Shown here in pieces: positions 12,735 through 64,000 of a DNA stretch of 64,000 nucleotides. The first letter of the stretch is position 1, and each line of letters begins with the position of its first letter. A program made the position numbers and the translations under genes. The notes beneath the pieces were generated by a model. The model worked only from the letters and a program-made list of their open reading frames with translations, was not told the origin of the DNA and made no database searches. Source of the DNA: Hormiphora californensis (lineage: Eukaryota > Animalia > Ctenophora). The stretch is from the NCBI GenBank assembly GCA_020137815.1, contig CM035352.1:7626001-7690000 (forward strand). The letters run 5' to 3'.

Positions 12735-20777
<8,043 letters not shown>

Positions 20778-28056: not shown

Positions 28057-31000
28057 ATGTTCTACAACTCCCTCTCCTCCTCAAAACAGGGTCCTGAGGA
28101 TAACAACCCTTTGGATCACCAAGAGTTTAGGATTATAATTCTTGTTTTCCTTGTCCTTGCTACCCCTCCCACCATTATCCTCAATGTTATAGTTCTTACT
28201 ACTTGTAACAGGTACAGTTACTTTGTGTTATAGTGTAACACACCAAGGTTAGATCCTATACATTGGTGTGTTACACTATAACTAGTAGCTAGTGTACCCT
28301 TTGTAGGGTAGATCTATCCCATGGGCCCACTTTTTATTGGGTTGAACTATTTTGGGTGGGAGACATTTATAAATCAATTGCTTCAAATAAGTTACACTCA
28401 CGCACCCAGGGGACCCACACAGCATTAGGGCTGCAACTAAGGGTCCCTTACTAACAAAACTTGAACTCAACGAAAATGTAGTTTCGCCTTGACGCAAAAT
28501 AAAACCATTAGAGAAGGGTTTTCGTGCTGGTTGCTGCGGTATACCACGACCGCAAAACAGGGTCATGCGGCTTTACACTCGGAAGGAAGAAGATGAAGGA
28601 AGAGGAGAAAGAGAAGGGTGGGGGTGACTGAAAAACAAGTACAAGCAAGATCAGAGAATATCATCAGGGACAATTGTTCCTGAGATATGCTTCTTCACTA
28701 GCTTATTAAAGAGGGGTAGTGAATTGCACTGCCTGATCGAAAAGGGTAACTTATTCCACAAACTGACTGTTCTATGGAAATAGCCAGCCCTGATCGCTCT
28801 GTGGGTAGCGGGCCCATTCCTAAGTTCAGGGATAATAGCTAGTGTGGTGATATCACGACCCTCACATGATATATCAACATTCTGACGCGTGGTTCTCAAC
28901 GTGGTAGGATCGATGGGTTGAATGAAGTCAGGAATGGGGATATTAGTAATACCGAAAACCAGCTTGTAAAACAATCTGAGATCATAATACTGAAACAGAT
29001 ACTTGAAAGGTAACATATTAAGGGTCAGGAGATGTTCCACATATGTATCATTGGAATATGAAGCTAGTGGTTCATTCCTAATCCATTTAACAGCACGCTT
29101 TTGCAACTTCTCCAGATTTTTCAAACTACCAACATTAACATTAGACCAGATTTGGTTACAGTGCTCTATCAAAGATCTCACCATAGACAGATACAGGGTC
29201 TTCTTGTAGGAACTGCGCTTCAGAAAATAACAAGTACGACGTAGTAGGTTAAATTTGAAAACCATAGAGGAATGTAAGCTCTCAACATGTGTGTTAAACT
29301 CAAGACTACCAGTGACAGTGATACCTAGATCTCGCTGGCTGTCAACATAATTTAAATAAGTACCACCCAAAGAGTAAAAGTATTTAAAGTAAGGTAAATT
29401 ACTAAAGGGGTTCTGAATATAGGAAAGGTTACTAGATACAATCAAAACATGACACTTAGAAGGATGGAACTTCACCATGTTGCGTTCAGACCAGGCATAT
29501 AAAGCGTCAATTGATTGTTGAAGTGATATATGGTCATTCATGCAATCAATACGACGCCATATTTTGGTATCGTCGGCATAGAGCATGATATTAGTACCCG
29601 AGGTAACCTCAGAGATGAGGTCGTTTATAAAGATCACAAAAAGAACAGGCCCCAGGATAGATCCCTGGGGGACACCAGAACTGACAGGCAGTATATCTGA
29701 GCTCTCACCGTCAACAACAACTTTCTGAAATCTCTGTCTCAGATAACTCTTCACAAAACTCAGGAGATTACCCTCAACTCCAAAAACATGCTTCAATTTG
29801 CTGAGTATTAGGTCGTGGTTACACGAATCAAAGGCACGTGAGAAATCGAAATACACCACATCTGCACGTGCCTTGTTGTCTAATACTTCAGCAAGATTGT
29901 GGGTGAAGGGTAACATCTAAGTAGTACAGGATCTACCTGCTAGAAACCCATGCTGGCGATCATCCAGGTTAGGATAACAAATCTCTAAAAGTCTCGGCTT
30001 AACAAGCTTCTCCATAGTCTTGGCAACAAGAGAGAGTAAGGATATCGGTCGGTAATTACTAACATCCTTTCTATCTCCTTTTTTATAAACTGGGACAATG
30101 GAGGCCAGTTTCCAGGGGGTGAAAAGGGGGTGAACCAGTTACTACGGGTTAGTAATAGTAACAACCAGTTACTACATTCTCTTTCTTTTCAAAGCTCAGG
30201 ATGGCATTTTAAAAGAAAGCAGTTGCCTACAGCAATAATTACGTGTTGACAGTTGACAGTTTCTCAGAAGACGTAATCCCCCTCCCATCCCCCACCCATT
30301 ATAGCATTCATCGTGACTTATTGTCTCTGATTATAATACCTCTAAACCGGTTCATTGCCAATCATTATCAAACTGACATTGACAAGACAGCTCTATATCT
30401 AAAAGTTCTAACACATTCGTGGGGGGTCAAACAAATCATAACGTAACTTCAGACTAAACAAATCATAATTTAATGCCCCCACTTCACCCCAGGTCAATCA
30501 AATCATAACGTAATTCCCCTTTCTCAGGTTAAAAAGAGTTCAAGCGCACTACCTGGTGATCAACACAGCCATAGCAGATCTCCTAGTGGGACTTATCTCA
30601 AACCTGTCCCTCATTGCCGGTATTGCAACGTGTCTTCATATTAACAAATATCACACCCTAGTGGATATTTGGACTTTACCATGTCACGTGATCGGACCTC
30701 TCTCGACTCTATTTGTATACGCCTCCTACATGACTCTCTCCTGCATTGCACTAGACAGATGTTTAGTTGTGATATACGGTGCTCGATACAAGATAATTGT
30801 CACGCCACGTGTTATAAAAGCTTTAGTTACAATATCCTGGACGTTGTCCACACTCCTGGCCTTCCTTGGGCCACAAGTGTTTGGTTTGGATAATATCTAC
30901 TCGTTCTACCCCCCTGAATCAATGTGTGTGGTGGTAGTGAAGGACAAGGTAGTGAATGATGTGGTACATGAACAACAAGGGGGAGAATCAGGGGATGCAG

Positions 31001-31509
31001 AGCACCAGACACTCCGTGATGAACGGTTCTCTATAATGGAGAGTGTAATGAGCATGTACCTACCCTTCATTGTTCTTGTGACGTCATCGCTCATCCTAAT
31101 CGTTAATCTCCACCTCCGGAAGATAGGACAGAGGAGCGATATTGTGAAGCGGAGTTGTCAGACGGTGTTGCTTGTAATGTTAGGATATGTGGTGTGTTCC
31201 ACTCCCTACGCGGTCACAGCTCTCCTTCACACACAGATAACACCGGAAATGTACTTGTTATTTCGGTTTCTGCTCCAGGCACACTGTCTTTTTAATCCGA
31301 TTATATACATTTTCAAGGATAGAAACTTCCGGAGGGCCATGTCTATGAAGAGAAAGAGAAGGAGTAGTTGGATGAGGAGGCAGGATAAACGGTTGCAGTT
31401 GCACAATAAAGTGTCAAGCAACAGTCTTGATAGCACTGTGTTAAACACGGCGAGGAACACTACTGCCGTGAAACATTTACAGAGTGTTACTGAAAATGGA
31501 CAAATTTAA
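28057..31509 (+). CDS. Class A (rhodopsin-like) GPCR, 378 aa, 2 exons (28057-28211, 30528-31509)
   Basis: Exon 1 gives TM1 (RIIILVFLVLATPPTIILNVIV); phase-2 junction into LKRVQAHYLVINTAIADLL; DRC, TM4 W, CSTPY, NPIIY, FRRA helix 8. Confidence 0.9.
28370..30114 (-). mobile_element. 5'-truncated LINE (CR1/L2/Jockey group) reverse transcriptase, antisense within the GPCR intron; 3' boundary approximate
   Basis: WKLASIVPVYKKG..NYRPISLLS..QHGF..DFSRAFDS..GVPQGSILGP..YADDTK; one in-frame stop at 29917-29919; ORF 28651-29916. Confidence 0.92.
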
Positions 31510-31741: not shown

Positions 31742-34700
31742 TCAGAGAGTGTTTTCTAGGTCCAGCTTAGTGTCAATCGCAATACACCGTCCATTGGGAA
31801 GGAAGGAGGGATCGGCTTTGTTGAACTTTTGAAGCACCTAAAACATGGGGGATAAATTACTTATCGCTGCTTGCATATGCAGTTTACTAACAATTCAATG
31901 ATTCCAACTATACTTTCCCAAGGCTGTCACATACTCTCAACTGCAACCTCAAAAACAAAACCAAGCGAAAACCTCATATAAACAAACCTCATTTTCGACG
32001 GCACTAAATTTGCCGGTGTGTTCCTGTAGATAAAAGAAGAAGGTGATATAGCTCCACATGTTGTGATCTCTATCCACGTGACTAGCCCAGGATATCCCAT
32101 TACTGGTTAGGTTGTCTTTGGAGAGCCCGCACACTGTACAGAGTGTTGTCATGTCCTTCAACGCCTTCTCTCGCTCCGCCTGGGTGGTATTACGGGGTTG
32201 GAGACAACTTCAAAATATGTAGTGGGGGGATGTAGTGCTACCATATCGTCAGAACATATTGTTGGGTGTTCTAGAGTAGAGAAAGGGTGGGTAGCTCTCA
32301 TATCTGCCTAACAAGCACTAGTATAGTATTAACAAGAAAACGATATAGTGGTATCAATACCTTTAGTTGTCTGAATCCATCGAGGATAAGAGAAGTAACG
32401 ACATTGAGACCGATGATAGTAAACAGAATCCAGAAACTGGCATCAATTAGCAACCTCATCCACAGGTCGTTAAAAGACGTCCTATTGGTCCAACTGGGGG
32501 AGAGGAAGGGGGAAGGTGTTAGATTCCAGATCAGATAAATGTTAAAATGTTAGCAGTTTGATTGTGGTTATCACTCTATACAACCACACTGCAAAACACA
32601 CAAAGCGGGCCAGCAACACAAATGCTCATACTAAAAACACAAAGCTGCTATACAATCACACTGAACACATAAAGCTGCTACACAATCACTGCTCACACTG
32701 AAAAGTGAAAACACGTCTAGCTGCTAGCGCTCACACCTATAATTGTGGCCCCCGCTCGACGGGCGAAGGGAGTTCTTTAACACAGTAACAAGGCACTGTC
32801 CGAGCGTCTCACAATACTCCATCTTATTCTCGTTGAACATGTCCCGGAAGAAAGAGAAGTAGATGATAGCGTAGATATAAGTGATTATCACCGCGAATGG
32901 TACACACACCTGAGGGAAGGAGGGAGGGTGTTGTTGTTGTAATCACCTGTAGTTGTGGCCGCCCCCAGTTTCCCGGAGAGATTTTAGAAGGACGGTCGAG
33001 AAGCACTCCCCAAAACTACCGCAGTACTCCATAAGGGGATTGTAGAAGGAGTCACGGAGAAGCAAATCGTAGATAATGGCGTAGGCGAAGGTAATGAATA
33101 GGGCAAAGGGTATACAGAACTGAAACATGACCGTGGTGACCCGGGGAATAGGAGAGAGACATGCAGGGGACTGGGAGAGAGACATGCAGGGGAATAGGAG
33201 AGAGTAATGAATAGGGCAAAGGGTATACAAAACTGAAACACGCTCATGGTGACCCGGGGAATAGGAGAGAGACATGCAGGGGAATAGGATCAATCACTAT
33301 TAGGCGGGGAATAGGAGAAAGACATGCAGAAATTGGGGATCAAAGCGGTGATGATTCGGACATGCGTCATGCAATGAGAGGTGGCTTAACCGAGGTATCT
33401 TAAATTGCGAAGAAATGGATGCCATGCCAAAATGAATTAGGAAAGCGGCAGGTGAGTAGAACTTCGCTCCTAATAAAAGGCTGCAATAAAAGGCTGCAAT
33501 AAAAGGCTGCAATAAAAGGCTGCAATAAAAGGCTGCAGAAAAAGGCTGCAATAAAAGGCTGCAAGGGATCACGTATCCAACCAGACTAAAGCGGGGGATA
33601 GACCGAATCGTCCTCCCCTAATAGTGTTTCGTATCACGTATCGGCTGTAGTGAGACCGAATCACCCTCCCCTAATTATAGTGATTCGTGTCACGTATCCA
33701 ACTAGACCATAGGCAATAGAGAGAGACCGAGATAGAGAGCGAGTACGAGTGAGAACTGAGAGTGTGAAAAATCAGAATCACGGCATGGTATCACGTACCA
33801 TGGTATCCTCTAATGAAAAGCGGTTACCAATTGGCAATGAGACCTCATCGGTCCCGATACGTGATTCTCTACCGCTATGTATTCTCATAATCAGTAATCA
33901 CGTATTGGCACCGATTAGGTCAAATTATAGGTAACCGCCTTTCATTTAATTAATTAGAGGATATCATGAAACGTGATACAATACTTGATTAGTCGTCCAT
34001 GATTCGGATCTCTCACTCTCACCTCTCTAACTCTCTATCTCCGTCTATCTACCGCCTATGGTTTAGTTTGATACCAGGCGATCAATGGCTACCAGGCGGG
34101 GACTGGGGAGACATGCAGTATCTGTGATCAATCGCTACCAGGCGGGGACTGGGGAGACATGCAGAAATTGGGGATCAAAGCATTGATGATTCGGACATGC
34201 GTCATGCGAGGTATCTTCAATTGCGAAGAAATAGATGCCATGCCAAAAGGAATTTATAGGAAACCATGCAAATCTTGGCGAACAAAGCTGTTGTATTGAC
34301 ATTCCCGAAACTCCCCAAAACTTCCCAGTTCCCTCCCCTAGCCCCTCCCTAGTCCTTCCCCTCCCTAGTCCCTCCTTCCCCTCCCTAGTCCCTTCCTTAC
34401 GATTAGTTGGTCAATGTGAATGGTAGCACCCTGGATAACTCTCCTCAGCAGGTCAAACAGTGTAGCAATATGGAACAGGTGAATACAGTACATCACACCA
34501 TCACTCCTGAAAGTTACAATCAGATCAGGAATGGAAATATTGGTAAATCGGGGCCCGGTAAATCGGGGTCCGAATGTACATATTATCTTCAATCGGAATA
34601 TTTTGGGAAATATGGTTTATGATGTGGCGTTATTTGTAAACTGTAACCCCTCTTACCATATTCCTAGACCACTGCAGATCAGTAGAGCGAGCAGGTAGAA

Positions 34701-37700
34701 ATGGTAGAAGGCATTCCAATTGATTGCCATTTTCTTGGAGGGGTTGAAGCGTATTGAGATGCGATGGTAGTTAGCCACAAAGTAACTGATACCCAGGAAA
34801 GATACACGCCATCATGTGAACGATACCCAGCAGTATCAAGCAGAAGTAGAACCCTTCTGAGGGACACACCCCTGTGTAGGTTCGATTCACATTCTCAGAT
34901 ATACACTTGCTGATGTGCACCGGGATTTCGACTTGTCTGTTCTCCGCTGTTTGTTTTGCGTAACTCATAGTCCACCCACTCACGCTAACAACCACAACTG
35001 CGAGAAGGGAATGGTATCAGGATACATCAATTATACATTATAGGGCGTGAAGAGTGCGTTACTAGTGCGTGATCATTGCGTGATAAGTGCGTGATAATTG
35101 CGTGATATAATTATTAGTATAACGCGTTATGTAATCACGCTGGTTATAAAGCTCACCTGCATGAATAGAGCCAATAAAAACACCAACCAATCCCACCATA
35201 TCTCCCTCTTCATGACCCAGTGAAGTAATGGGATCGCCGTGAAATACCTCTGATGTATCATGTCTTCAACGATCTGGAGAATTAGACATGTTTTTTTGTT
35301 ATTGTGCTCTGGGAATATGCAGGTCCTGAACAAACTCTACTAACTAGAGATGAATTCAAAATGAACATCACACCGCTCCCTGGTCTCACCTCACTACTCC
35401 ACATTAAAAAGTCTCGTTGTTTATCGAACTTTGATTTTCTATCCAGACCCCATTTTAGCTCCTCTTTTATCTTATTCCGGACTCCTCCGCTTTTTGGCAT
35501 GGGATAGTACACCTTCTCTAGATGCCCCTTCCACTGGATTTCAACACTACCCACCTGGGAAAGGGATGAAAGTTAATGGACGAGTCGACGATTATAACTT
35601 TTTCAGTACTCAGTAGTCACTAGTCAGTAGTCAATGACTGCTGAGTACTGACTACTAGTCATACAGGTCACAATACAATAAACTAGCATCATACTCGAAA
35701 CGAACAAAAACTTACCTTAAGTTTTTGTGATATTTCATCATCCAGTTTCCCGACATAATCCCTCTTTTCCAAGGAGCTGATCTTCTTCAACAGAGCATAC
35801 CCCTTGAAGGCAGCAGTCTGGGCCTGCTCCCCTCCCTCCGAACCCAGGAGACCAAGGTGAGCATTTATCTCACATTGTAATGTTCTAATGTCCAACTCTT
35901 CCCGGATCTTCTCGTAGAATTCTTTTAGCATGTTGGATTGTTCAACAAGGGTCGAGAGAAGGGAGTAGCAGTTAGATTTTATCTCTTGGGCATTCTTGTG
36001 GTCGTTCGCTGCAGGGAGGGAGGGCGTGTTAATAATGAAATACAGTCGCACAAGAATTTAGTTGGCAATCTGTCCATCTGAATTATAACGTACGTTATAA
36101 TTCAGATGGACAGATTGCCAAATAAATCCTTGTCATTTTCTAACCCTAGCCTTCCTTTACGGGGCACGGTGAGACAGGGTCGTCACGGTCACGGCAACTA
36201 AATCACGTACCGGGTGCCTCAGAAGCAACAATAGAGTTCAGTATCTCCACTATATCATTCTCTATAGCAGTCTCTTTAGCAGCATCATTTGCAGAGATGA
36301 GTGAGTTGACAGATCGCATTGTATCAATTAGTAGCTCACCCGACCTTACACAGTGTAACAGTCTGATTAACATGACCTGAAAAAGATGGGGGTGGGTGAT
36401 GAAACTAGGGAATTAATACGACCTGAATGAAGCGGAGTGGAGTTGGGGGTTGGTAGGGAACACTGAACTGGGGAATCAAGAAACATCGAAATCACATTAG
36501 AGAATATGGTTGCACCGGGAGAGGGAAAGCAAAGCAACCCATATATTGAAATAGAAACCATTGCAACCAATACACTCTACCTACCAAGAAGTTGTGAGAC
36601 ATGAGTTTGTTGTCCTGGAGCCTCAAGTAATTCTGCATCTCTGTATACTGCCCATCACACATTGCCCCTACCAGCTGTACTGATAACCTGATTATTGAGG
36701 TTGAAGACACGATCCCAACATCCTCTAGTGAACCTTCAATACCAGCCCGATCCCGCATCGCTTGGATCATACATAACTGGCTGTTACCTAGTGGGTGAAA
36801 AACAGTTAAACATTTGGGTACCTAGCTATAACCTGACAAAGGTCAAGGGTGAATTAAACCTGCTTCTTGGACATTATAAGTACAGTTCCCCTCCCATCCT
36901 ACCTTCAATAGCTGCCACAATATTTCCAGCACACCACTCGAACAAGGGTTCATCATTAGTCAAACAGAACTCCCTCAACCTGCTCTGGGTCGTTGGTATT
37001 TGTAGGAGACTCAACATGCACTGTGTAACAGCTTCTTGGATATTATCGTTATCACATGTTGTCATCAGGCTCCCAGAGCCTCAGTTAGGCCCATTTGTAG
37101 GAGGGATGCAGCGGGGGAGTTCTGGGGGAGAAAGGGATGTTAGAGATCAGGTGGTTTCAAATGTGAGGTTTAAAGAGAGAATTTTAAATCTTTTAAGAGC
37201 AAAAACACATTCCCACAATTACACGTATATTTAGCTCAGCAAAAGAAAAAAAGAAGGGTGCAATTTATGCTGAAGTTTTTAATGAGAAAAATTGGTTTAT
37301 TATTTGCCTGAAAATATTAGCAGAGTTACTGGGTTAGCGTTTTGACTCACTAGGTTTGTGTGAAAATATACTACTTACGGCAATTTTGAACTTTTCTTTC
37401 TTCATCATATCCCCAAGATCGGCTGGGGCTTGGTCCTTAAAGTGGATTAGGGCTTCAAACATGCTCATACAAACACACAAACCAATCAACAAACCAATAA
37501 TCAATAGGGCTTTTTCAAAACAAAATCAAGTGATTCACAACAAGACGTGGAAAACAATTAGCAATTCTTACCCGAGTTCTGTTGCTATCCTCCGCCAACA
37601 CGGCAAACACATTGATGAGACGGATTGCAGTGTAATCTGAACAGTCTCCGTTCTCTATTTTGGTGATTATTTTGGAGAGTTGGGCTACTGGTTCATGGGT

Positions 37701-40700
37701 GTCATAGTCGTCTTCCTAAAAAAATTGAGGGGGGTTTATAATGATGACTGATATCCAGCTTAAAGGTCGGCACGTTAAACTTAAATTATTTTAATTGCTT
37801 TAATTGATTTACCGTATCATCGCAGAACGGTGCGAAGTTCATCAGTTTATCGTCGTCGCTTTTTAAAACTTCATCAAACATGATAATTCCTAGACTCTTC
37901 AATTCTTCACTGATCTTAACTCCCCTTCCATCTTTCTCTGTCTCAGTTACCTGTGACAACATGTTAGAGCACATTTTGGCAACATGTTAACTATTAGCAC
38001 ATTTTGGCAACATGTTAACTATTAGTATATTTTTTGTGGTTAGCACACTTATACACCTTACCAGTTTGGTTTTGCTAGTTATTAGTTCGGTCAAGGAAAA
38101 CCCCTGGTGCTCAAGCTAGGGAATTCGATACATGATATCAATTGTCACATGATGCCACACATGATCTCACACATGACGTCACACATGATGCCACACATGA
38201 TGCCACACATGATGTCACACATGATGTCACACATGACGTCACACATGATGTCACACATGATGTCACATGATATGACGTGACTAACCTGAATTAAAGTTGA
38301 CACGATTGTTTGGAAGGCATCGTTCATATTACATTCCTTGTTCTCTCGCATTATCTTCTTCGTGTACGCCTCCTTCAGTTTGTACCCAGTCTTCTTTAGC
38401 ATCAGATCCATGACATCATTAATTTCCTTGTTAAACTGCACTGGCTTCTCAACCTAGTAATATATACGGGGGTTAGGAAAATACTGGCTTACTAAATATG
38501 TAATAGCATGGGGTCACGGGGTTAGGAATAGTGGTGTATAATATTGGACATGAAACAGCTCAGGGGTTTACGAAAAACGAGCGAGACTATAATACGAGAC
38601 TATAATACATACCGATTGGAGAAGACCAGTTCCCTCTTCAAACTGGTACATCCTGTTATCTTTATCAGAGAAGTAGAAATCAGAGAGATCGTTGATGTTC
38701 AGTGTGTTCACTGCCTCTATAGCTTCGAACAGTAGAGTCCACAGCATGGAGTTGAGGAATGGAGATACGAACTTGGCGAATTTGCAGAGTTGTTTTACAA
38801 TATTAAACCTATCGACATCTTTAATCGTCGCCTCAACCTGAACAGATATACAATGGGTTAGAAGGAAACAATAATTATTGCAATGCGTTATTGGGTTAGG
38901 ATGAAACAAAGATGAGGGGTTATTGAATTATGAAGTAGCTCCATAGAAGACCAAATAATGATATTGCATGAATGATGTGAAGTGTTTACCATTTTCGCAA
39001 CTTTTCTGCCAGTATGGTCAGTGGTCGTGAGTGAGTCGTGAAGGAGGAATGGTGGTATACCCACCAGATCTCGGTCTGATGAGAACACGTTGGTGACAAT
39101 CGGGCAGAGAACGAAGAAGATGTAGTCGTAGTAACAGACCAGATCCTTCAAGACGGGGTCCACATCCTCTCTGCTTCCTAGCAACTTTATCTGAAAGGGA
39201 GGGAGAGGGGTAGTAACTTACAACTAGACACTACTCCCTCTCTTATCGCGATGAGAGTTGTTGAGTAAGGGGTCGACCCCTTACTCAACAAGATGAGAGA
39301 GGGTCAAGATTGTCACAATTTGCATTGCTCGAACAAAACAAGTCAAATGATGACTAATCACTTATCTAATAAGTAATAGGACAAGTACCTGTGTACCGAG
39401 ATCTCCCAGCACGTTCAAATACGACATCTTCTGGCTGGTTGTACAATTCCGAAGGTTCTTTGTCACTCTCTCAACCAGAGTTACACCCTCGTTAATATAC
39501 CAAGCCAAATCCTTGCCTAGCAGTTGCTGAGGGAAGAGGGACATCGTTAATATAGTAAGGAGCGACAGGTCAGTTACTGAAAATATATTATTGATCATCT
39601 TCAGTTCATTTCTTAGCAGCCAAAAGGTGATAAATTACCAAACCAAGATCTCTCTCATTATGGTTCATGCAATGAATTATATAGCGAGGATTCCAGATCG
39701 CTACGTGCAGGTCGTGCACGTGTCATGGTTCATGCACACCTTACCATTAACCAATACACTGCCGACTTTCTACACCGACTCTAGATGTATATATTGGTAT
39801 AGTATACATTGGTATAGTATACATTATACAAGCCATTTGAATTGAAGCGTGGAGACAGTGTCAGGCGACTCAACAAGTCATGCACACTACACCAAGTTAA
39901 GTTTGTGTTATGGACCCTTCTGTCAGAGCATTAGCCTGACTGATAGATCATTTACCGCACACCAAACGCCACAGCTCACGCACACACACGGTTCACAGTC
40001 ACGCACTTTTGATCAGCTGACACACACGCCTTACCATATCTATTAGAAAGTCTTCTGCTTTAAAATTACACTGTATAACGGACAATTGTCAACTACTTAA
40101 ACTTAGTTAACTGCATATTTTAATGAGTTGTATGACTTTAGGCCCCGGATCTTACCTGTCGTTCCACAACGCTGATTGACTTAATGTAGACGTTCAGGAC
40201 GAACTTGGACAAACAAGTGAAGTAAGTGATATCATTCCTTGCTGCTCGAAGAAGAGGAAACACTGTTCGAAGCTGGTACTGCTCCTTGCAAATTGTCTCA
40301 GTGGATTTCGCATCGCCCACCACACAGCATGCCATTAGGGAGATCATTTGTGTGAAGTAGAGTCCCTGCCAGCTCCTGAAAAGGTTCACAAATGTTAAAT
40401 GAGCTATCAAGTATTAAATAGCCATGGATAAATATTTTTGCACACCGCTGACCGCGAACCAGGGACGGAACTGGGACTCTGGCCCACCGCGTCAAGGACA
40501 TGGGTAAACCCCACAAGCAGGGCTCAGTTGTGTAGGGGCGGGCGTGGACGCACAGTCAGGCGTCAGCTCCTATCCACCTCTGTCGCAGACGTGCCCGAGA
40601 CGCAAAACTTTTTTGCAAACTTCGAAATGTTCCTTTCGAAAAAATGTTCCTTTCAAAATTTGTTCCTAGCGCCGCGCGGAAGATTTTAATGCGCGTCATA

Positions 40701-43700
40701 TGACTTGTTTTGCGCGTTCATTATAAATGAACCAATCACATGATCGTATTTCAATCACGTGACAACGCCGCGCATTCAATGACTTTTCGAAAATTCAGCT
40801 CAGTTGTTTTTTCGTTGCGTAAAAAAATCACGCAAAATGTTTTGTTTTTTTACCGTGTGTTAGACAGGAGATCCTCCTTATTGAGACCGAGTAGACCATC
40901 AGGCCTCTTCTCAGACAACTGGTCCACATTTAGAAGGTTCAGTTCACTCAGCGAACCATCCTCCTCGATAAGACGGCCATTCAGCTCACTCCAAAACTCT
41001 CGAATTAGCCTGAAACAACAAGCCGTGTTAGTTAAATCAACCAAATATACATTCAAACAAGTTCATTACCTGAGGACGTATGTTTGATGTTTGCATAAGA
41101 AGTCTGTCGAGTCTTCCATGTCGATCATGTTCTCGATTATGGCGAGGTAGAGGTAGCTGTATCGAGCCTTTTTATCAATCTGGTCGGGTGTCGCCGTTAC
41201 GCTCTCCATTATCAGGTGGAATAACGCTGAAGGGGTAAAGAGATAAACTTTGGGTTTAGCAATTATTGACACAGTTGTAAATCAGCTACCCCAACTCTGA
41301 TCGAATGGGTCATATACGGTCTATCGTCCTCAAAGGGTTTAAAAGAACAGATAAGCAACTTTACATACCTAAGATTTCATCTTCCTTCACATTCAGACTA
41401 AGATTAGTGTTGTCTGTGAATATCTCATCGAGAGCAAAAGCCTTTGCTTGCTCCAATTTCCCTTCGGTGTCAATCTCTTCAACATCATGCACTGACAAGA
41501 TTTCCTTAAAGTGCTCCATAACATTATCTTGTCCCTGTTCCAGTCCCGATACAACAACCTGGAGATAAAATTGTTAGAAAACTACCTGGTTTAAGTTTAT
41601 GGCTGGTTTCTCACCTTCAGCAATCTAAAACTCTCAATCTTTAGATTTAGAAGTTTCTGGTTCACGAAACTGTTAGCTTCGGTTGGCAGGAAAGTGGATG
41701 ATATTGTTGTTTTGTTCGCTAGCACTATCCGTATTATCTCTTGCACGGTACCAAGGTTGAAGACAAATGTTTGCATGGTTCGATTTATGCTGTTATCGTC
41801 ATTGAGACAGGAGTCTCTGAGGCTGTTTAGTGCTACAATCACACTGTCCAATAGATCCTCTCTGAAGGAACAAGAGTTAGTTACAGACCCAATAAGCAGG
41901 ACAAGTACAGGAGTGAGAAGATTGATTTACAAACGGCAACTGTGGTTGTTAGACTTACGAGAGGGGGTCTGTGCTGAGTCGCTTAATGGTCAGAAAATTG
42001 TTTGTTATATCATTCCGCACCCACAGCGACTCCTCCGCTACCATAATCCTTGTCTTGGGCAGCACCCCTAGTAACTTGTGTATGGGAGAGAAGAGGAGGA
42101 CCATCAGCTCAGTGGCTCTAGTTGTCAGATAGTCAGCCTCATAGTTGAGAGTGTCCAGTACGACCTCCATAATGTCAGGGGTCTCGGAGAACAGGTAGAT
42201 GTCAGAGAGGATGTCCTCTAGGAATTCTGTGAATGTGCTGCAATGGCTAGAATTGAGGTCCTCTCCCTGGACTATCTCTGTCACGGCCTCCGGTAGGGTC
42301 ATTATCGGGATCACGTTCTGTACCTGTGGACCGTGGGAAATAGGAAAAAAAGCTCCAGATAAAACTGTCAAACACTTTCAATAACATCACTTTAAAAAAA
42401 CAAGAATTAGGGAACAAGGAGTGGAAATTATTCACTTACAGCATTGGTAATGTTGATTTGGAGCATCTTCTGTTCATTACCACCTGTTAAATCATACAGT
42501 GCAGTATGTAGCGGTGACATAACTTTGATCCAGAACTGTGTTAGACAGTGCCAGAATGCGAGATGAAGTGTTTCCAGAACTCTCTGTTTGATAACATTAC
42601 ACTTCCGGTTTTCAGGCAGGTTCCGGAACCTGATGGAGGTGCAGTGGATGAAATATTAATACGATCACCAACAGTAAATAGATCTTCCAATTGCAATGAC
42701 TATAATAAATGTTGGATTTATTTTAGCACCCCCTACCTGAAGATGGTTCGGAATACAATCAGACTGTTTTCATCTTGATCATCCTCATAGTACTTGTCCA
42801 GTGTGCCATCCAACCATTTTATTAGAGCCTTGATGTACCTGGAAAATTGATGTTTTATTTCTGCTGAGTCAATAACCAAAGTGCAATTTTCAAGAAACAC
42901 ATAGTGGAATTCTGTCTAGATTCCACCCAACGCTTATTCAATTATGCAAGTGTACCCAAATGTGGGTAACTTAATGCAAGATATTAAAATCCTCACCTTT
43001 CAAGTTGGATGGTGCTCATTGTCAGTTGATCCTTCCTGAACATGTACTCAACCAACATAATGGCACTGTTCTTGAACTGATTTATCTCCTCCTCTGCAGT
43101 CACCACGTGGGTATTATTCTCAACATACTTCAACAGCCACTTCTCCAACACGGCATACATGTCACGGGTTGTCTCCTTCCTCTCCAGGGCCCTCTTGTGT
43201 TGATATGACAACATCCGGGGCTCGAAGCTAGGCTCCCTGGTGTTATGGTCGATATGTGCAGCGATCAGGATCCTGATATAAACAGACCGGATTTGGACAT
43301 CAATCTCCTCGTTAGTGATGACATCAATACATTCCGTCTCGCTAAACATGTTGAGATTGTTTACTATCGTCTCCTTGGCCATCATATTCCGTCCATACAT
43401 GAGGTTCCTGATTAGCTCCAGCTGCCCTAGCCACTCCTTGAAGGTGTCTGCGTTGGTTGTCTCGCTTAAATCGACTACTGGGACCCACTTTTGTTTAACC
43501 TGAACACTCACAATACCCCCTGCAGTGTGCTGAATCTTGTACATGCGGGATGCAAAGGCTGCTTTGGAGAAGAGGGCCCCGATGATAATATTCTGGTTAG
43601 CTGTTACTGCCTGCTTTTTACATTTGCACAACTTCCTCAGCACCTTCAGACAGGTCCCCGTACCAAGGTTGATGTAATCCTTGACGAGCCGCTCAGTGAT

Positions 43701-45883
43701 ATCACTACTGATAACAGAGACTAAATTCACATTGTCCCTGATAACGTTGAAGAAGGCGTCCAGTCCACTATCGTTAAAAGCCAGAGCCCTCACCAGCTCC
43801 TGGCCCTTCTCTCCAATACTGCTGTGGGTGTGTTTTACCATGCCTCGGATCAGCACCACCAACCATTCAACAGTCCTTTTGAAACCCACATCCTCTCCCA
43901 TTCGTGGGAGGAGAAGGTGAGCAATGTTGAAGCAGAGATCTGTGATACCCATTGACATGCAGCTCTCATAAACCTCTGTCTTCTTCTTCACATTCTCTAG
44001 GTACCCGTGAATCTCCTGTACTGCACCAATAATTTGTTCCGTGTGGTGAAGAGTCATCTGTCCCTCCTCACACCGCTCCTTTATCACCTTCAACAGGAGC
44101 TTGTACCCGAGGAGTTTGAATAACCGCTGTCGCGTCTGCACATCAATCTTGTGGATGTTCAGAACATCAGTGTGGTCTCTGTGCTCCGTACACACGATCT
44201 TCCTTGTCGTTCCCTCGAGTGGCCCAAAACTAAGCCAAGATTTCCCAGAGAACATTTTCAAACAGTCCCCTGATTTTATATCCAGGCTCTTGATCTTGAT
44301 CAGGGACTTTAAAGAGACATGATCAATCTTTGATGGGAAGACAGCCTTTTTACCGGTGACAAAGTTGGTGAGCGTCACATCTTGTGCAGTACCGCTACCG
44401 GACGATATTTTGATGGGACAGGAATATTTTGCCTTCAGATTTTCCACAACCCAATATCCTGAAGCTGCGAAACTCATGTGTTTTGAGTTGATTTTCTCTG
44501 CTTTTCTCAGCACCAAATCTCCCTCTGCATCCATCTCGAGGAACATGTTGAGTGATTTGTTGTAGAACTGTACTAAATCCCCGCCTAGTACCGTGTTTTG
44601 TGTGAGGGAGGTCTCACTGACTTGGGAGAAGTGCTTGCTTTGGGTCAACTCCTTGTAAAGCTTGATAGAGAAACCGCCACCCTTGGGTCCAATAAACACC
44701 TCCCTCAGACTCGGGTAGAGAGTGCTAACGGGGTTCAAATCTCGAACACTCGTTTCAATAAATCCATCAGGATCGCTGTATAGGTTCACAAAATCCGAAT
44801 GGTTCACCGGGTCACCCGGGTCGTATCCATCCACCGCCGGTAGAATTTTGAAACGGCTATGTTTGCTAGGGTCACAGTCCAGGTAGCATGCAAAGTTTCT
44901 CGCCTCAGTATGAGAGGTTCGTTTGGGCGAGGCTGTCATTATTTTCCCTGAGTACAAGTGGAAGAGCTGGATTGTATGGTCGTATCGAACAACTCGGCCA
45001 ATATAACGGTTCAACCGCTTCTGGTTGTCCTTTTCCTCTCGTTTGTGGTTGTTTTCGAGTTCTAAAATTCGGTTCCAGTTTAACTTTTTTCTCATCAACT
45101 CCTCTTTCAACTCCTCCAATGACTCGTACCTGGGTGTGGATAGAGGATGTTACAGTGAATGCTTATTCAAATAGGCATATTAGTAATAAGTAGTTATTAA
45201 GGATTCTGCAGATCTGATTAGCCAATTAGGCTTGTCAAATCGGAAATAGGACCAAGTATTCACACTACTCGTGGCACGAGTAGTGTGCGGAGAGAAAGAG
45301 AGAGAGGCAATGTCAAAATATGCTGAATGGGTGAGCCGTTAACGCTACTTACTCATATGGAGGCATGATCCGGAAACAGCCACATGTCTTTACACAACAG
45401 AGTTCCTCTGGCATATCTCTGTTGTCCATTGGCATCATAAACATGTTCGACACAGCCTCACTGCTGTAGTAGGAGCCCAGCATCGAACCCACCTATAGAG
45501 AGAGAGAGAGGGGGGGTTAGGGAGATAATTACAATCTGATGTTGTTACCGGTGCGTGGTTATATGTTTCTGAAGAACCTTGAAACGGTCTAGTACAGTAC
45601 ATAAACACTGGGGAGCTATAATTTAGGTGAATATATATTTTGTACATCTGAAAATTCTCAAGAACTATAAAAGAGAGCTCTCCCTTACTTACGATATACA
45701 GTACGTGTACGTGAGGCCTCCTAATATAAAATAGGTGCACCTACAGTATGTACCACTAACCTGAGTGAGAAGGACGGTGTCCCATACAACTAACCTGGGT
45801 GAGAAGGACGGTGTCCCCATACTACTAACCTGGGTGAGTAGGACGGTGTCCCCATATCGCAGATGGGTCTCCTCCTTGCTCAT
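31742..45883 (-). CDS. Divergent inositol 1,4,5-trisphosphate receptor (IP3R/RyR-superfamily) channel, multi-exon
   Basis: N-terminus HLRYGDTVLL; VVRYDHTIQLFHLYSGK; LGGDLVQFY; MCDGQYTEMQNYLRLQ (RIH-associated); GSVEI..LEKVYYPMP; TM6 RLLIDASFWILFTIIGLNVVTSLILDGFRQLK; zinc finger CTVCGL..HVDRDHNMWSY; stop at 31742. Confidence 0.85.
32737..32909 (-). CDS. IP3R pore exon B (candidate mutually exclusive exon)
   Basis: 173 nt, AG/GT bounded: VCVPFAVIITYIYAIIYFSFFRDMFNENKMEYCETLGQCLVTVLKNSLRPSSGGHNY. Confidence 0.85.
32947..33119 (-). CDS. IP3R pore exon A (candidate mutually exclusive exon)
   Basis: 173 nt, AG/GT bounded: FCIPFALFITFAYAIIYDLLLRDSFYNPLMEYCGSFGECFSTVLLKSLRETGGGHNY. Confidence 0.8.
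33472..33563. repeat. 13-bp tandem repeat (AATAAAAGGCTGC) x7
   Basis: Direct reading. Confidence 0.95.
34542..34576. mobile_element. Partial CAGTCGGACC-family MITE (one end only)
   Basis: GGTAAATCGGGGCCCGGTAAATCGGGGTCCGAATG|TA. Confidence 0.55.
36062..36121. repeat. Perfect 60-bp spacerless palindrome in an IP3R intron
   Basis: TTGGCAATCTGTCCATCTGAATTATAACGT|ACGTTATAATTCAGATGGACAGATTGCCAA. Confidence 0.97.
38146..38281. repeat. 12-bp tandem repeat (CACATGATGTCA) x~11 abutting a splice donor
   Basis: Direct reading; donor at 38284-38285. Confidence 0.95.
39258..39291. repeat. Perfect 34-bp palindrome with imperfect outer arms (39236-39303)
   Basis: TTGTTGAGTAAGGGGTC|GACCCCTTACTCAACAA. Confidence 0.95.
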
Positions 45884-53612: not shown

Positions 53613-56600
53613 TTAATCGGCGTTCAACATTAGAGCAACACCCTGTAGGACCCAATGAGAGGTGTGTTCCTTAGTGGTAATATCCGCTTCAAATACAAGA
53701 CCTACTCCCATAGCGTTACGTCTCTCTGAGGTAGTGTAGACGGGTGTTCGGAAGGTGTTCTGGAGCTTCAACCTATGTGCCTCAATTGGTATCACTTTTA
53801 GAATCGGTAACTCCTCGACCAATATCTTTGGCTTGCTCTTTCTCAGACAACTATTTTCAACATCCCAGGTTCCGCCCTCTAGATACAGACCCTCCACATA
53901 GCACCCATTATGCAGCTTCTCTCTCACATCACCCGCCTTAACGTGCTGTGTGACAGTTGTGTACAGGGTGCTCTTATCAAGTGGCCATCCGTTCTTTCTG
54001 CAGGTAGCCTGGACCAGTGCAGTGAGATAAGATTCAGGGATGTGAAGTCCTGACAGCCACATCACCGCTGGTTCACCCTTCTCTATCCACTCTATGTACT
54101 GAGTGTATCTCCTCTCGAAGTGAGCTATCCAGTTACCAAGACTCTTCAGAGTGTCAGGTGCGAGCCGCCTCCAACTGGCTGGTATCTGACCATTGAACAG
54201 AGCTTTAGCTACCTCATCCAACTCTGCACTCATACCAACTTCTCCGGCTAGAGCTCTCTTTAGAGTCATTACACTCATCTTCATTTTAAATATCAGGGCA
54301 TTGAACCTCTCCAACTCTTGTAGTAGTACAACTGCAGTGGGGGTTATCTCACCAAGCTGTTTCCTAATTCTGTCCAACTCAAACAACACCGGTAATTTCT
54401 CCTCTATGTCAGATGCTACCTTTTCGATGTACTGCTCCCTACTTATACCTCCATCAGAACTAGAAGTCTGGGGCTGCAGTTCGATCATGTAACTACACAT
54501 GTCCTTAGCTGCATTGGTGAAGTATCCTATCTCGGCGTTGCTATGGAGTCCAAATACACAGGGTGTGTTGGCGAGGGGTAGACTATCGATATACTCCAAG
54601 AACTTGTCTCTAGTGCTCTCTTTAGGGATGTTGTAGGAGATTTCCTTGTCTTTGTAGAAGAAGAATGGTTGGAAGGAATCGAAGATGAAGTCTCCCATGT
54701 ATTCGTCCATGTAGGTGTTGATGATACGTCTATCGAATTCATCTATCGCTCTGCCACCATACATAACCTCTCCGATTAGGTACTTTAGAGAACTCCAGGG
54801 GATCTTGCCGTCTATCTCCATCGACTTATCCAGATAAGTCTTGATCAGCTCCATACAGACCCGGAAATCAGACTCGTTGAAGTCATACGGGATGTTCCAA
54901 CCTATCTTACCGTACTTTCGACGTTCCTGTACGACAGCGTGGAAGAAGGCCAGTACAAATACCAACTCAGGATAGGCTTTGTGGCTGCAATCTTGGAGGG
55001 CTTGGGATGGGATCTTGACAAATGTCTGTCGGAGATTTAGTTTCAAACCGTTTGGAGGCTCTGTAACCACCTTGAATGAACGCTGCAGGATGCCAACAGG
55101 GAATTTGGGTGTCGGTTCGGTAGTCAGCCATAACCTGAACTCTGGATGTGGTTTCTGGATCTTTTCTAGCGCCTTTTCAAGATCAATCAGCCAGTTAACG
55201 AGAAGATGACAATTCTGCAACATGAGCCACTGTCCACGTGTAATGGCTGTGTCAAGCAGCTGGAGGGCAGCTTTCTCCTGTCCCTGACCCATGGCAAGGA
55301 ACTTGAGTCGGTTTCCCCCGAATCCAGTCCTATCTGCCAGTTTCATCAAATCAGAAGCTGGATCAGACCCAGGACTAAGGATAAAGACGACAGGAGAGAT
55401 GGGAGAGGATTGTTCAAGGATCGCCTCGAAGGTCACAACGGGAGGGGTGACATATTTCTCACCCATTTGAGCGGTGACGTAGTTGGTGACACCACGGTAT
55501 ACCCGGTCAACTCGGAAACATTTCAGGAGACATAGTTTCTGGAAATCGCCCATTTTGTCTTCCAGACCACCGGGTACTGGACGAGATTCAGGGTCATCCA
55601 TTTCTGCCCAAGTCTTCCACTTGGCTCCATCCCTCTCGACCATTCCGGGGACATCGCCAAGAGAGTGACACACCTCCCCAAACTTCACCAAATCTTCCCA
55701 ACCCTGATCTGGGATCCACGGGTGGGGCTTCTTCCTAGCACTCTTCTCCAGTGAAATGTTACCCTTGACAAAGAAATCAAGCTCTTCATTCCTGAGTTCA
55801 TCCCTCGCTTGTAGAATCTTGATAGTCATCTGGAAGGAGAACAGCAACTTGTGGATCTCGAACAGACCCGTACAGGCGTAGGCGTAGATATTCTGGGTTA
55901 GAGTGTCGATGATATTTCGTAGCCTCTTGTTGAGAAGGGAATCAGGGAGGGATCGGCGAAGTGAGATGTTGAATACCTCAAGGAACGCCATCAGGGAATA
56001 CTGGTACATAGGATTAATGACTGACATGTCCGAGAGAACGAAGAAGAGAACTGCACCACGGTTCGCTGCCATTCTGTATCCATCTCGAGCCCGCTCAATG
56101 TCAACTCCCTGTCTTCACTGACAGTTTCAGTTTCTCTGTAACCTCCGCAGCCTTGGTCTTGGTGTCCTTCCAGAGTGGAGATCAGCTCAGGTATTATCGA
56201 GCATGTTACCAGTAGGAGTTGGCCAACTCCCTGAGGAGAGTGTCCTCCAGATCCTTCAGCTTTTGTTTATTCTGGAAGGTCTCCTGGATCAACTTCTCTC
56301 TCTGCTCCTCCAGTTCCGGTCTCTCATACTTGACAATCACACTTAGCAGCTGATCTTCCAGACCCTTGAGGGTTACAGTGTAATTGATTACCATACTCTT
56401 ACCAAACACTCCAGGGCTGTACTTGGGATTAGCAAGTTTGGTATCCAGGTAAAGTCGGAAGTTTGGATCGTAATCGACCTCCTTATCTCCCAGCACGATG
56501 TACTGTCTCTGTCCAGTACCCTTGATATTCCGCTCCAGGACGTTGTCAATAACAGGATCAATGTACTCATCAACATCCTTGAACAGGAATGGGAAACCGT

Positions 56601-59600
56601 ACTTGATGGCCAGTTCGAGCTGTTTCAGGAAGTCAGCATCGTTGAAGGTACACACCTTGAGGTTATTCTTCTCCTCCCTCTTGGTTATCCAGGTGAGAGC
56701 TTGCTGTTGGGGATCAATACACAGTGGGAACCTGCTACCCTGGGTCGTCAGGATACCATTCTGGACAGACAGCTCATCAGGAGGTAGACCCTCTGAGGTC
56801 CACTGACTGATCTCAACGTCATTAGTCAACAGGGCTTCAAGTCTGAAGGGGTCGCTCATCGGAATACCCCGTTCTTTCAGATCTTTCTCCCAAATATTTT
56901 TCAGAAGGTCCTCTCTGAACTCGAAACTGAAGGCACCCACATAGCAAAGGAAGGCTGATCCTGCCATACAGTCTCCAAGGAGACATGTTCGCCTCTTTTT
57001 CAGCCCATCCAGATCTGCACTCCATCGTCCTTTCTCAGAGGACAGACCAGAGATCAGTTTCTGGGCCGCATCAAGCCGCTTACTCATAAGCTCAGCCTCA
57101 TCCTGGAGCTGTTGTTTCTCAGACATGGCTTCCTCGAACTTCTTGGAAAGGTCTTCTAGCTCTGCTGAGAGACTGGTACACTCGGCGGTGATACGATCTA
57201 ATTCTCGTTTACTAATGGTGAAGTTCTTCTCAAGTTTTGCCACCTTCTCTCGTTTGGGTTTGATCTCCCTTGCAACGGCACAGTACCCAAGGATAGCAGT
57301 CACGAACTGGAGGAGACCAAAACCAGCACTGGATATCGTCTTCATCGCCTCTAGGGTACACTGCGAGTTCTCCTTGAGGATGTTTTTCACTGTTCGCACC
57401 TGTGCGTTGGTGATGTCATCAACCTTCAACTCCTTCAGGTTCTTCAGGAAGTTCGACTCGGACATCATTGCCTTGGCAGACTTCCAGGAAACGTCACGAA
57501 TACCTCGGACAACAAGAACACACTCACACACCGCCTGGACAGTCTTGGGTGGGGTAGCAAATGATCGAATCTCAACAACATCACCCTTGTCCAACTTCTC
57601 GAGGGCAACCCTAGCCAGTTCAAGAGCGGGAAGAGCTTCATTGAGGGCTTCCTCAGCCTCCGCCTTCTCCACAATAATCAACTTGTTTTGTTCTTCCATC
57701 TCAGCACCCTTCTTCACAGCCTCTTTCTGCTTTAGTTTCGTTACCTCTTCCCTCTGTTCAATCTCCTTCAGCAGTTCGTTACAGCTCGTGGTTTTGGCAC
57801 TTACTGCGATCTTCTGGACCTCCAACTTGGCCTTCAGCTCATCAATTTGCTGGGATGCTTCAACCAGTTTTGACAAACCAACCTCGAGACGATTGCATTG
57901 GCTTAGGACAAAGTTATCTTTCTCCTCGAGTAGTCTCAGGAAGGTAGACACAAAGTCAAGATAGTTCTTGGGGGTGACATAGTTGACCCTCCTCAACATT
58001 TGGTGGAACTTGTTGCTCGATGTTATGACGGCCTGGTGAACAAGCACGATATGCTGGATCAGGTTATCACGATGACTTTCAGGTATCAGGGCATTTTCAC
58101 CACCCAGGAAAGTTGAGGCAACAGCCTCCAGGGCCTGAACGGGCCATGGCAGGAACCAATCAATTACCGTCTCATTGACAAGACCAGGGAAGTTTCTGCA
58201 CCGTGTTCTCAGAGTCTCACCGACTGGAGACATGGAGAGGACTATGTGCAGATTTCCAGATGCCTTCTTGATGAAATAGTTCCAACAGTTCTCTTTGTTT
58301 GGGTTGATACCAGCCTTATTCACCTCATCTCTGACATTGTTGATAATGGCTTCTTTCTCGTCATCCGGGAAGAGAGCGGGAACCTGACCAGTCGTCAGCA
58401 TGTTGTTAACCGACTCTAGGAACCCTTCCTCCACCACGTGACCTTCACTGAACAGGAACACTGTGGGCTTGTTCTCAATTCCGAGTTTGTTGTAGAGAAC
58501 CTTGAGGTCCTCCTTGAAACTCTCCTCGTTGTACCCTCGACACAGTGTGATCTCGAATATCTCACAACCAGCAGCGAAAGCAGCTAGTTTTGTTAGGGAT
58601 TGTTTACCGGAACCACCAACACCGACTAGCAGAGCATGGCCGTTAACCATCCTGAGGACTCGATGGATCCTGGTAGCGTGGTCAAGAGCATCCTCGAACA
58701 GCACGATGTTCATTGGATTGAACGTGGCATTGTATTCCTCTAAGATCTCAGTAAAGAGAGCACCGGACGCATCGAAATCCTGGAGATCCTCATAAACTCT
58801 AGGCTCTGTCTCGGGGTTTAGAGCAGCCCTGTAGTCACCAAACAAGATTGGATTTCGTAGCACCACCTCGCTTTCCTCGCGGAAGTTGCTGGAGATGATA
58901 TCATTGAGATGGTTCTGGACCAGGTCCTTATCCTTGTTACTGATCAGTCGATCATGGAAGATTCTCAGGCATTCGTTCCTCCAAACTCGCACAAACGCCG
59001 CCTTTTGTTCATAACGCTCAGGTAGAGTTAAAGACAGACCGTAGTAAATCCGTGACAGATCCCGCAGATTGAAGATGTAATGGAATTTGGAAGGAGTTGG
59101 TGGTAGCTCCTTCACAATATTAGCATACAGCTCCAGAGTGTACTGGGTGAGTGGTTCAGCCAGATCTTGAATATCCTGTTTGAACGTCTGGAGATGTCCC
59201 TTGAGAATGGTCGCATAGATGTAGTTGAGTGTGCTCTCCTCCGGGAATACCATGTTGAACACGCAGAAGAGGGACAGGAACCGAGGGTTGACCTCGTTAC
59301 GACCACCACCAGCCTTACCCATAGCAGCCAGATAGGAAATATCTCTGAAGAACCGCCACTGGAGGTCCTTGCTTCTGTCGTACATGCCACCCTTCTCCAG
59401 AAGGAGTTTAAGCAGCTCAATGGGCTGCTGAGATCCATACGTGTCCACCACGGGCATGTTCATGTCATCCATGAAGACGAGCAACTTCTTACCCGCGGGA
59501 GGCCCAAACGAATCCTTAGTCCTCTTCTCAACATTGGACTCCAAATTCCGTTGGATGTCCATGGAGGTGGTCCGGGATGAGAAGTTGATGTTCAGGACGA

Positions 59601-62600: not shown

Positions 62601-63568
62601 CCCTCTAGGTACATCCACTTCCTCTGCACAACCATCCAAACCTCCACAACCTCACTGATGTGGGACAACTTCTTTTCCCAGCTCTGGACGTTCTCCAGGA
62701 AGGGGCCAACAAACCGTGACGCAGACATACTCTGCAGATTCATAGCATTGTCATCCAGAGACTGCATAATCTCTTCAACAGGACCCAGCACAAAACCTCG
62801 GTCCTGCCCTCCCTTGCTGTATTTGAGGACATTAAACTTAGTGCTGTTCCAGATATCAATGATGTCCTTGAGCCCGTTCTCAATGCTCAGCTCCTTAACG
62901 GCACTGGTAGTAATATCACCTATGACGTCACTAAAGTTGTGCAGCTCCATGGCAAATAGTTGGTCAAGGGTGAAGGTATCTGGATTCATTTCAAAGTTCT
63001 TGCCAGTCAGCTCCATGAGTTTCTTCCAGTGACGCTCCCTAAGAGCATCATTCTTAAGATCCTGGAAGAGAGGAATAGAATCCTTGAACTCCTTCATTTT
63101 CGCCTCAAGGATATTGCAGATTCCCATTGCTCGGATTTTCTTGGGGAACTTTCGAAGCCTCTTCAGGAATATCTCGATACCATCGGAAAGGATGGAGATA
63201 TTGAGATTAGCCCAGAGAGTCTGAGACCACTCCTCCTGACCCTTCTTCTGGTCACTGTAGAGACTGTAGATCATGTCATAGCCCTGCATATCTGCCTCGA
63301 GAGACACCATATCCGGGTACATACTGATAGGCAACCCAAACAACTTCTCTGCATTAGCCAACTCCTGCCGCTCGTTCTGGTACTTCTCAAACAGTTCCTT
63401 GAAGATCTTTTGCTGGTTGATTCCCTTATCCAGATCATATCCCACAGCACCAGGACCCTCCATAAGGAATTTCTCCCTGAATGCCGAGAGGTCTTCCTTG
63501 AATTTGTCCACTTGGGTCAGGGTGATCTCTGTGAACTTCTTCTTGACTGAGACCAGCGACTGGTTCAC
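53613..63568 (-). CDS. DNAH10: Axonemal dynein heavy chain 10 (inner arm I1/f alpha), terminal ~10-kb exon with multiple frameshifts; 5' part lies outside the window
   Basis: [11 protein letters not shown]-loops [16 protein letters not shown] and [18 protein letters not shown], stalk coiled coil, C-terminus [21 protein letters not shown]; acceptor at 63569-63570. Confidence 0.92.
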
Positions 63569-64000
63569 CTGTAGAAGAGAGTGGTGTTAGAAACAGGGCA
63601 CAAGGATAATCTGGATATGGTCATTTTTTTTAACTTGTGCAAAAATTTTTCCGAAAATGACATAAGTTCAGTTTTTTCGACTTTTATCATAGTTTTTGTC
63701 AAAAAATATTATTTTCCAACGAATATTATGTGTAAAAGTGTATAGGGAATAGATTTACAGGCAAAATAAATTAAAAACTCATCTCGTGAGGTGCCGGTGA
63801 CCATGTTTGCAAAAGCGTGTGCCATTCCGTCAAATTTTAACATTTTTTCCCAAAATTTTCGAAAATATGCTGAAAAATGTCCAATATAAACACCTTTAAA
63901 ATATGTAAGCAAACTTACTCAATCTATGAGGTGCAACCGGTGTTTAAAGTTACACTGTATACTTACAACTACTTAAGCCCGTAGCACCTCACGTTTCACG

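Follow-up and report, generated by a model that had tools for sequence, protein, structure and literature searches.

Switching of pore exons by alternative splicing is a kind of mechanism already known from the NALCN and Cav3 channels. In invertebrate NALCN, exons 15a/15b and 31a/31b are arranged in tandem, are used mutually exclusively, encode pore helices and the selectivity filter, and are conserved across species (Senatore et al. 2013, PMC3557258). The NALCN channel consists of one chain with four repeats, and in one of these a single charged filter residue is swapped (E/K) (PMC3557258). The alternative exons 12a/12b of invertebrate Cav3 extend from S5 through the turret to the pore helix and change selectivity while the narrowest filter residues stay the same; they are of unequal length, have different cysteine patterns, and terminate ahead of the filter (PMC4436565, PMC5095125). 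Thus, an exon that stops short of the filter still alters selectivity in Cav3 (PMC4436565). Within the IP3R/RyR superfamily, the insect ryanodine receptors carry mutually exclusive exons a/b, but these are located in the cytosolic SPRY2 domain and not in the pore (PMC3342285, PMC3787966, PMC6026295). According to one of these studies, no exons of this type had been mapped in the IP3Rs of insects (PMC6026295), and the term "mutually exclusive" is absent from a review of insect RyRs and IP3Rs (PMC8301844).

The window, i.e., the 64,000-nt stretch of ctenophore DNA analyzed here, contains an IP3R-like channel gene with two adjacent homologous exons, A and B, which have equal length and phase and their own splice sites each and which, like the NALCN exons, lie in tandem over the pore helix and filter region (Table 1). 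In the following, window A and window B denote the exon copies in this stretch, and lobates stands for Mnemiopsis and Bolinopsis. Both exons are preceded by CAG, followed by GT, and open in frame 0. They are identical at 31 of 57 amino acids and at 98 of 173 nt, and BLASTP aligns their products without a gap (E = 3e-16). An initial annotation of this DNA had described two 173-nt exons with these ends, open frames and amino acid identity, separated by 37 nt, and all of its coordinates and counts were correct on recheck. It had further claimed that either exon alone maintains the reading frame while both or neither shift it. In line with this, joining the upstream donor (after 34401) via A or B to the start of the TM6 exon (32493) yields 232 aa open to the natural stop, whereas inclusion of both exons leads to a stop after 99 aa, omission of both to a stop after 38 aa, and retention of the spacer to a stop after 93 aa.

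Table 1. Coordinates of the channel gene and of the features around its alternative pore exons (positions within the window).
Feature	Position	Strand	Description
Whole IP3R-like channel gene	31742..45883	-	~30 coding exons, placed by homology with proteins of Mnemiopsis and Bolinopsis; inferred start codon
Upstream constitutive exon	34401..34506	-	aligns to TM4 and the TM4-TM5 linker; phase 0 at its end
Partial duplicate of the acceptor and first ~37 nt of exon A	33195..33289	-	89% over 95 nt; out of frame; lowest acceptor score; would frameshift
Exon A	32947..33119	-	173 nt; entered in phase 0, left in phase 2; alternative exon for TM5, luminal loop, pore helix, and filter loop; its acceptor is weak; Gly aligned to ITPR2 G2498
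A-B spacer	32910..32946	-	37 nt, GT...AG; candidate branch adenosines all <=18 nt from A's donor; no YTRAY
Exon B	32737..32909	-	173 nt; conserved, likely default version of the pore exon; its acceptor scores highest of all in the gene; Ser aligned to ITPR2 G2498
Downstream constitutive exon	32361..32493	-	TM6, gate; starts in phase 2

Isoforms with either one or the other pore exon are annotated in two other ctenophores. Among 16 named isoforms (4 from Mnemiopsis and 12 from Bolinopsis), 2 are A-type and 14 B-type, each with exactly one pore exon and none with both; this count covers the named records only and leaves out nine unnamed members of the Bolinopsis cluster. The A-type isoforms, KAL5265438.1 (Mnemiopsis) and XP_063676077.1 (Bolinopsis), form equal-length pairs with KAL5265436.1 and XP_063676076.1, respectively. 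In both species the swapped segment comprises the same 57 residues as in the window, and the 28 positions at which the Bolinopsis X1 and X2 proteins differ all fall within 2276-2327. According to a Mnemiopsis genome paper, alternative isoforms were derived with PASA from RNA-seq (PMC11797021; the records used here may stem from another assembly). All of these isoforms are annotated protein models, and they cannot show the absence of an A-B junction because frameshifted A-B transcripts would give no protein record. Further alternative segments occur elsewhere in the lobate isoforms (proteins P0001-P0017), in Bolinopsis at about 1268-1288, 1362-1389, 1703-1721, and 1795-1800, and a 19-residue segment is missing from one isoform in each lobate species.

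Additional relatives provided B-type exons. The metagenome contig L001 represents a spliced cDNA of another relative and contains one B-type exon with the same boundaries (L001:197-369). Protein P0022, one of four relatives retained from 86 short protein candidates, covers part of a B-type exon. In both of these, columns 45-46 read Arg-Tyr, which adds further variation at the end of the pore helix. No A-type exon was found among the four short relatives. A metagenome scan with the A/B alignment gave 296 pattern matches, none of which was confirmed, and a scan with the TM6 alignment gave one confirmed match out of 337. In one RNA run matched to the window at 85%, 13 contigs out of 337,919 records were recovered, 11 of them less than 90% alike and none on A or B. 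Overall, the either-or isoforms of the two other ctenophores, the frame arithmetic, and a spacer that is shorter than 27 other introns of the gene bear out the proposed mutual exclusion. Exons A and B are thus very probably used in a mutually exclusive manner, with their splicing in this species predicted from the sequence.

The splice signals suggest how exclusion may work. The 27 other placeable introns of the gene measure 56-629 nt, compared to 37 nt for the spacer. Except for that of the final AG, the spacer adenosines are found at positions 4-18, and its only TRAY-like motif overlaps the donor of A. A YTRAY motif is present within 60 nt of the acceptor in 24 of the 27 other introns and absent from the spacer. 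In human, a donor-to-branch-point distance below 50 nt serves as the criterion for steric exclusion (PMC5740500), a value that may not be the limit in ctenophores. Because no candidate branch point of the spacer is more than 18 nt away from A's donor, which is itself overlapped by the only TRAY-like motif, we infer that exclusion is steric: the branch point of B would be too close to A's donor for the two exons to be joined, and decay of frameshifted transcripts would act as a backstop. B would win by default through its far stronger acceptor. When scored against the gene's own sites, B has the strongest acceptor (19.0) and A one of the weakest (3.0), with the 27 others ranging from -2.5 to 16.2, whereas the donor score of A is ordinary (7.7). 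On the basis of these acceptor scores, B is likely the default and A a regulated minor form; the isoform counts (2 A, 14 B) do not represent expression levels.

Full-length relatives of the host gene were found in Mnemiopsis leidyi (ACHWQZ_G006224) and Bolinopsis microptera (LOC134812533), which are 63-65% identical to it over the largest exon. No others were recovered in the protein searches, where 2 of 5924 and 2 of 494 candidates were kept, all from Mnemiopsis or Bolinopsis. Four out of four lobate proteins, with lengths of 2416-2471 aa, contain PF08709, PF01365, and PF08454 above the Pfam cut-off and no SPRY domain at E <= 1. In the window exons, PF08709 and PF01365 exceed the cut-off and PF08454 scores 26.9 versus a cut-off of 28.5. 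The channel hence shows the combination that characterizes IP3Rs, i.e., suppressor (PF08709), RIH (PF01365), and RIH-associated (PF08454) domains, no SPRY, and a length below 3000 aa, and not the SPRY and RyR repeat domains and the length of about 5000 aa that mark ryanodine receptors. Pfam finds no MIR domain and a single RIH stretch; language-model features match MIR-bearing IP3R clusters at 0.95-0.97. In a ranking of PDB matches, IP3R1-3 come ahead of RyR, with the best matches at E 4e-25 to 1e-30. For the IP3-binding core, there were no PDB matches at E <= 10 for window positions 44702-43290, and in a profile comparison with N-terminal IP3R1 fragments the match was confined to residues up to 180.

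The ion pathway of this channel also departs from that of IP3Rs. The IP3R filter motif GGG(V/I)GD (PMC2995152) is present in neither exon: the six aligned filter residues are TGGGHN in window A, SSGGHN in window B, and AGGGHN or SAGGHN in the relatives, and the Asp is absent from all seven exons. ITPR2 F2537 and I2541, which form the hydrophobic gate on TM6 (PMC13503717), align to Thr and Leu, invariantly in the five sequences compared. In all five related sequences, Thr and Ser occupy the places of Phe2537 and the following Gly, so that not only the filter but also the gate is non-canonical. The label IP3R-like, used in the initial annotation, is borne out by domain content and PDB rank, whereas assignment as an IP3R proper is not, as neither a canonical filter nor a binding core was detected. 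Given the undetected IP3-binding core, the non-canonical filter, and the Phe-to-Thr change at the gate, we refer to the channel as IP3R-like, a diverged member of the IP3R/RyR superfamily whose status as an IP3 receptor is not established by its sequence. The gene has one frame break, near 34800 in the transmembrane exon 34997-34657 (minus strand), which lies upstream of both pore exons. This break is probably an assembly indel, since the gene is otherwise intact and conserved.

Alignment to ITPR2 places the exons on TM5, the luminal loop, the pore helix, and the filter loop. The Bolinopsis A-form region and ITPR2 2473-2597 align over 125 columns without a gap (HMMER, E 3e-19), so that exon column c corresponds to ITPR2 residue 2446+c. 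This agrees with the TM5-pore helix-filter position given in the initial annotation, and a filter register shifted by one residue was set aside because of the ungapped 125 columns. TM5 aligns to about 2397-2420 of ITPR2, which has a luminal loop that is ~49 residues longer. Two structure predictions were poor (pLDDT 52 and 46, pTM 0.29-0.30), and searching by fold yielded nothing at E <= 0.001; the filter register is accordingly taken from the sequence alignment.

Of the 26 differences between window A and window B, TM5 accounts for 10, the pore helix for 8, the luminal loop for 5, and the filter loop for 3. Of the two contrasts that had been proposed earlier, the one at the filter holds in part: the two exons differ in the pore helix and at the start of the filter loop, but the last five filter residues (columns 53-57; ITPR2 2499-2503) are identical in all seven exons, A and B alike. 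All seven carry Asn in place of ITPR2 D2502, a charged residue of the luminal vestibule that is equivalent to an IP3R1 residue implicated in selectivity (PMC13503717). The proposed contrast in luminal charge was not upheld, being slight in the window (5 acidic and 3 basic residues in A, 4 and 4 in B) and absent in Mnemiopsis, where the luminal loop has 4 and 2 in both exons. A charge-switch model was rejected, as the filter-loop Glu of window A (column 50) is not kept in the lobates and is replaced by Pro in both of their A exons.

Column 52, which corresponds to ITPR2 G2498, is Gly in three of three A exons and Ser or Ala in four of four B exons. Homotetramers of IP3R2 G2498S show no Ca2+ release and 2:2 heterotetramers are intermediate (PMC7939385). 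A single substitution at this position thus silences IP3R2 (PMC7939385, PMC13503717). This A/B contrast gives the best hint of a difference between the two pores in conduction or gating. The human result may not carry over to A and B, because the filter is so diverged nearby (V>G, G>H, D>N). The pore helix ends with a basic residue, located at column 46 in A and at column 45 in B. In the proposed mechanism, the conserved functional contrast between the two forms would consist of Gly (A) versus Ser/Ala (B) at the G2498 site, the Lys that ends the pore helix one residue later in A, and the TM5 exchanges V>F, I>F, and I>A. A change in ion conduction or pore gating between A and B is a likely reading of the alignment, and one gene likely makes two pore types that would differ in ion passage; the difference in selectivity or conductance suggested by the initial annotation is a prediction from the sequence. 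Channels of this family assemble as tetramers with one pore loop per subunit. If this channel is likewise a tetramer to which each subunit gives one pore loop, cells making both forms would assemble mixed pores.

Alternatively, the exons could be exclusive while their swap spares permeation and instead tunes TM5 packing and gating, binding of lipids or luminal partners, stability, or trafficking. Ten of the 26 differences are in TM5 and only three in the filter loop, three of the five columns fixed in A exons (see below) are TM5 columns, and the residues aligned to ITPR2 2499-2503 are invariant in seven of seven exons, all of which would fit such a role. Against it stands the Gly (3/3 A) versus Ser/Ala (4/4 B) difference at the very site where one substitution silences IP3R2 (PMC7939385, PMC13503717), and we consider this alternative unlikely compared to an effect on conduction or pore gating.

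Conservation in related species had been named as a check in the initial annotation, and both exon types are indeed kept in Mnemiopsis and Bolinopsis. Window B is identical to lobate B at 44-46 of 57 residues, whereas window A shares 31 of 57 with lobate A and is no closer to it than to any B (29-32). Exon A appears to evolve fast, since it retains only these 31 of 57 residues while the flanking exons keep 63-65 of 79 between window and lobates. Another alternative is that A is functional in the lobates but under relaxed selection or little used in the lineage of the window. The window A branch is 0.98 substitutions per site long versus 0.12-0.14 for the lobate A tips (LG+G4), its acceptor is weak, and a broken partial copy and repeats are found just upstream. 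However, the 173 nt of A contain neither a stop nor an indel and end with a good donor (7.7), all 24 columns that are invariant across six exons are kept, including both cysteines, and in comparison to L001 second codon positions are conserved at 40 of 57 sites versus 19 of 57 for third positions. A decaying or idle exon A in this lineage is thus improbable, and an exon maintained by selection is the preferred reading.

Five columns are fixed in all three A exons and absent from all B exons (F1, F8, A12, K46, and G52), whereas no column unites the two window exons against the lobate copies (5 versus 0; sign test, p 0.06). In line with this, the best trees group A with A, with supports of 83/90 and 80/84. 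Independent duplication in the window's lineage and in the lobates, in which case the two A exons need not act alike, was not rejected by the AU test (p 0.09 and 0.20 for grouping the window exons), and window A is equidistant from all copies. Given the diagnostic columns and the trees, such convergence has very little probability, and a single shared origin of the A copies is favored, but not proven.

The codon pattern indicates that the duplication is old. Between A and B, 35, 45, and 16 of 57 sites are identical at codon positions 1, 2, and 3, respectively (position 2 versus 3, Fisher p = 8e-8), with pS at 0.92 (saturated), pN at 0.30, and dN at 0.39. In a crude neutral simulation, none of 5000 copies stayed open with 31 residues kept at >=0.5 substitutions per site. 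At 0.25 substitutions per site 20% did so, but a branch of this length does not fit because third positions are saturated. Saturated synonymous sites, a retained protein, and the failure of the neutral simulation argue that selection has held both copies for most of the history of an old duplication. Artefact or neutral decay, either of which the initial annotation had said would overturn its proposal, is contradicted by the codon pattern and by saturated synonymous sites with a kept protein. An assembly artefact or dead pseudo-exon can be rejected: the window looks indel-prone, with one frame break in the channel gene and many in the long gene at 53613-63586, but the 75 base differences between A and B (out of 173) follow a codon-position pattern, and matching either-or isoforms of orthologs are recorded in two other species.

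Several other elements were observed in the window. The intron upstream of A harbors a nest of inverted repeats (33550-34074), a 13-nt tandem array (33472-33564), and direct repeats about 800 nt apart, which may represent a small non-autonomous transposon. A 331-aa ORF (30514-31509, plus strand) with the look of a single-exon seven-helix receptor lies tail to tail with the channel gene. Also judged by eye, a reverse-transcriptase-like ORF of 421 aa is located at 28651-29916 (minus strand) and a cytochrome P450-like ORF of 367 aa at 19674-20777 (plus strand). The long gene at 53613-63586 (minus strand), which is apparently intronless in this stretch and shows many single-base frame changes, presumably encodes a dynein heavy chain-like protein, judging by eye from its motifs.

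Overall, the data are best explained by A and B being an old, selected tandem duplicate of a pore exon that is likely used mutually exclusively, with B as the likely default and A as a minor form that likely changes conduction or pore gating. We assign this reading a probability of about two thirds. A more far-reaching and rather doubtful possibility is that the gene encodes a release channel specific to the ctenophore lineage, a member of the IP3R/RyR superfamily from which the universal filter Asp, and perhaps also IP3 gating, has been lost and whose pore is set by splicing: the default B would naturally carry the Gly-to-Ser/Ala exchange that abolishes the function of human IP3R2, the minor A would restore the Gly, and the A:B ratio in a tetramer would serve cell types as a dial between a closed or low-conductance and a conducting state. 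If true, it would mark the first case in the entire IP3R/RyR family of a pore switched by splicing.

A full-text search, which left most subscription papers and supplements outside its reach, found no literature on this channel gene or on alternative exons in the pore region of IP3Rs or RyRs. In the orthologs KAL5265436-9 (Mnemiopsis) and LOC134812533 X1-X12 (Bolinopsis), the A/B swap is already contained in automatic isoform lists under the names "hypothetical" and "uncharacterized". The switch is thus latent in two automatic annotations and apparently otherwise undescribed. Compared to ITPR1-3 (PDB 6dqj, 6mu1, 12ad), the channel shows the suppressor, RIH, and RIH-associated domains, the TM5-pore-TM6 unit, and the C-terminal Cys/His pattern in the same order; it differs in that GGGxGD is replaced in both exons (Asp to Asn), Thr takes the place of the gate residue Phe2537, the luminal loop is ~49 residues shorter, and an IP3-binding core is undetected by sequence. 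Unlike in Cav3, the two exons are equal in length, share the same two cysteines, and include the filter loop. In contrast to NALCN, where the exchange affects one repeat of a single chain, each subunit here has one pore loop, so that the swap would act on up to four subunits, and there is no conserved charge swap but Gly versus Ser/Ala together with changes in TM5 and the pore helix. The filter motif of the IP3R/RyR family hardly varies, and single substitutions there affect conductance or lead to disease. Against this background, A and B represent two natural pore modules that have been maintained across ctenophore lineages, both of them off-motif and unlike each other at a position linked to human disease.
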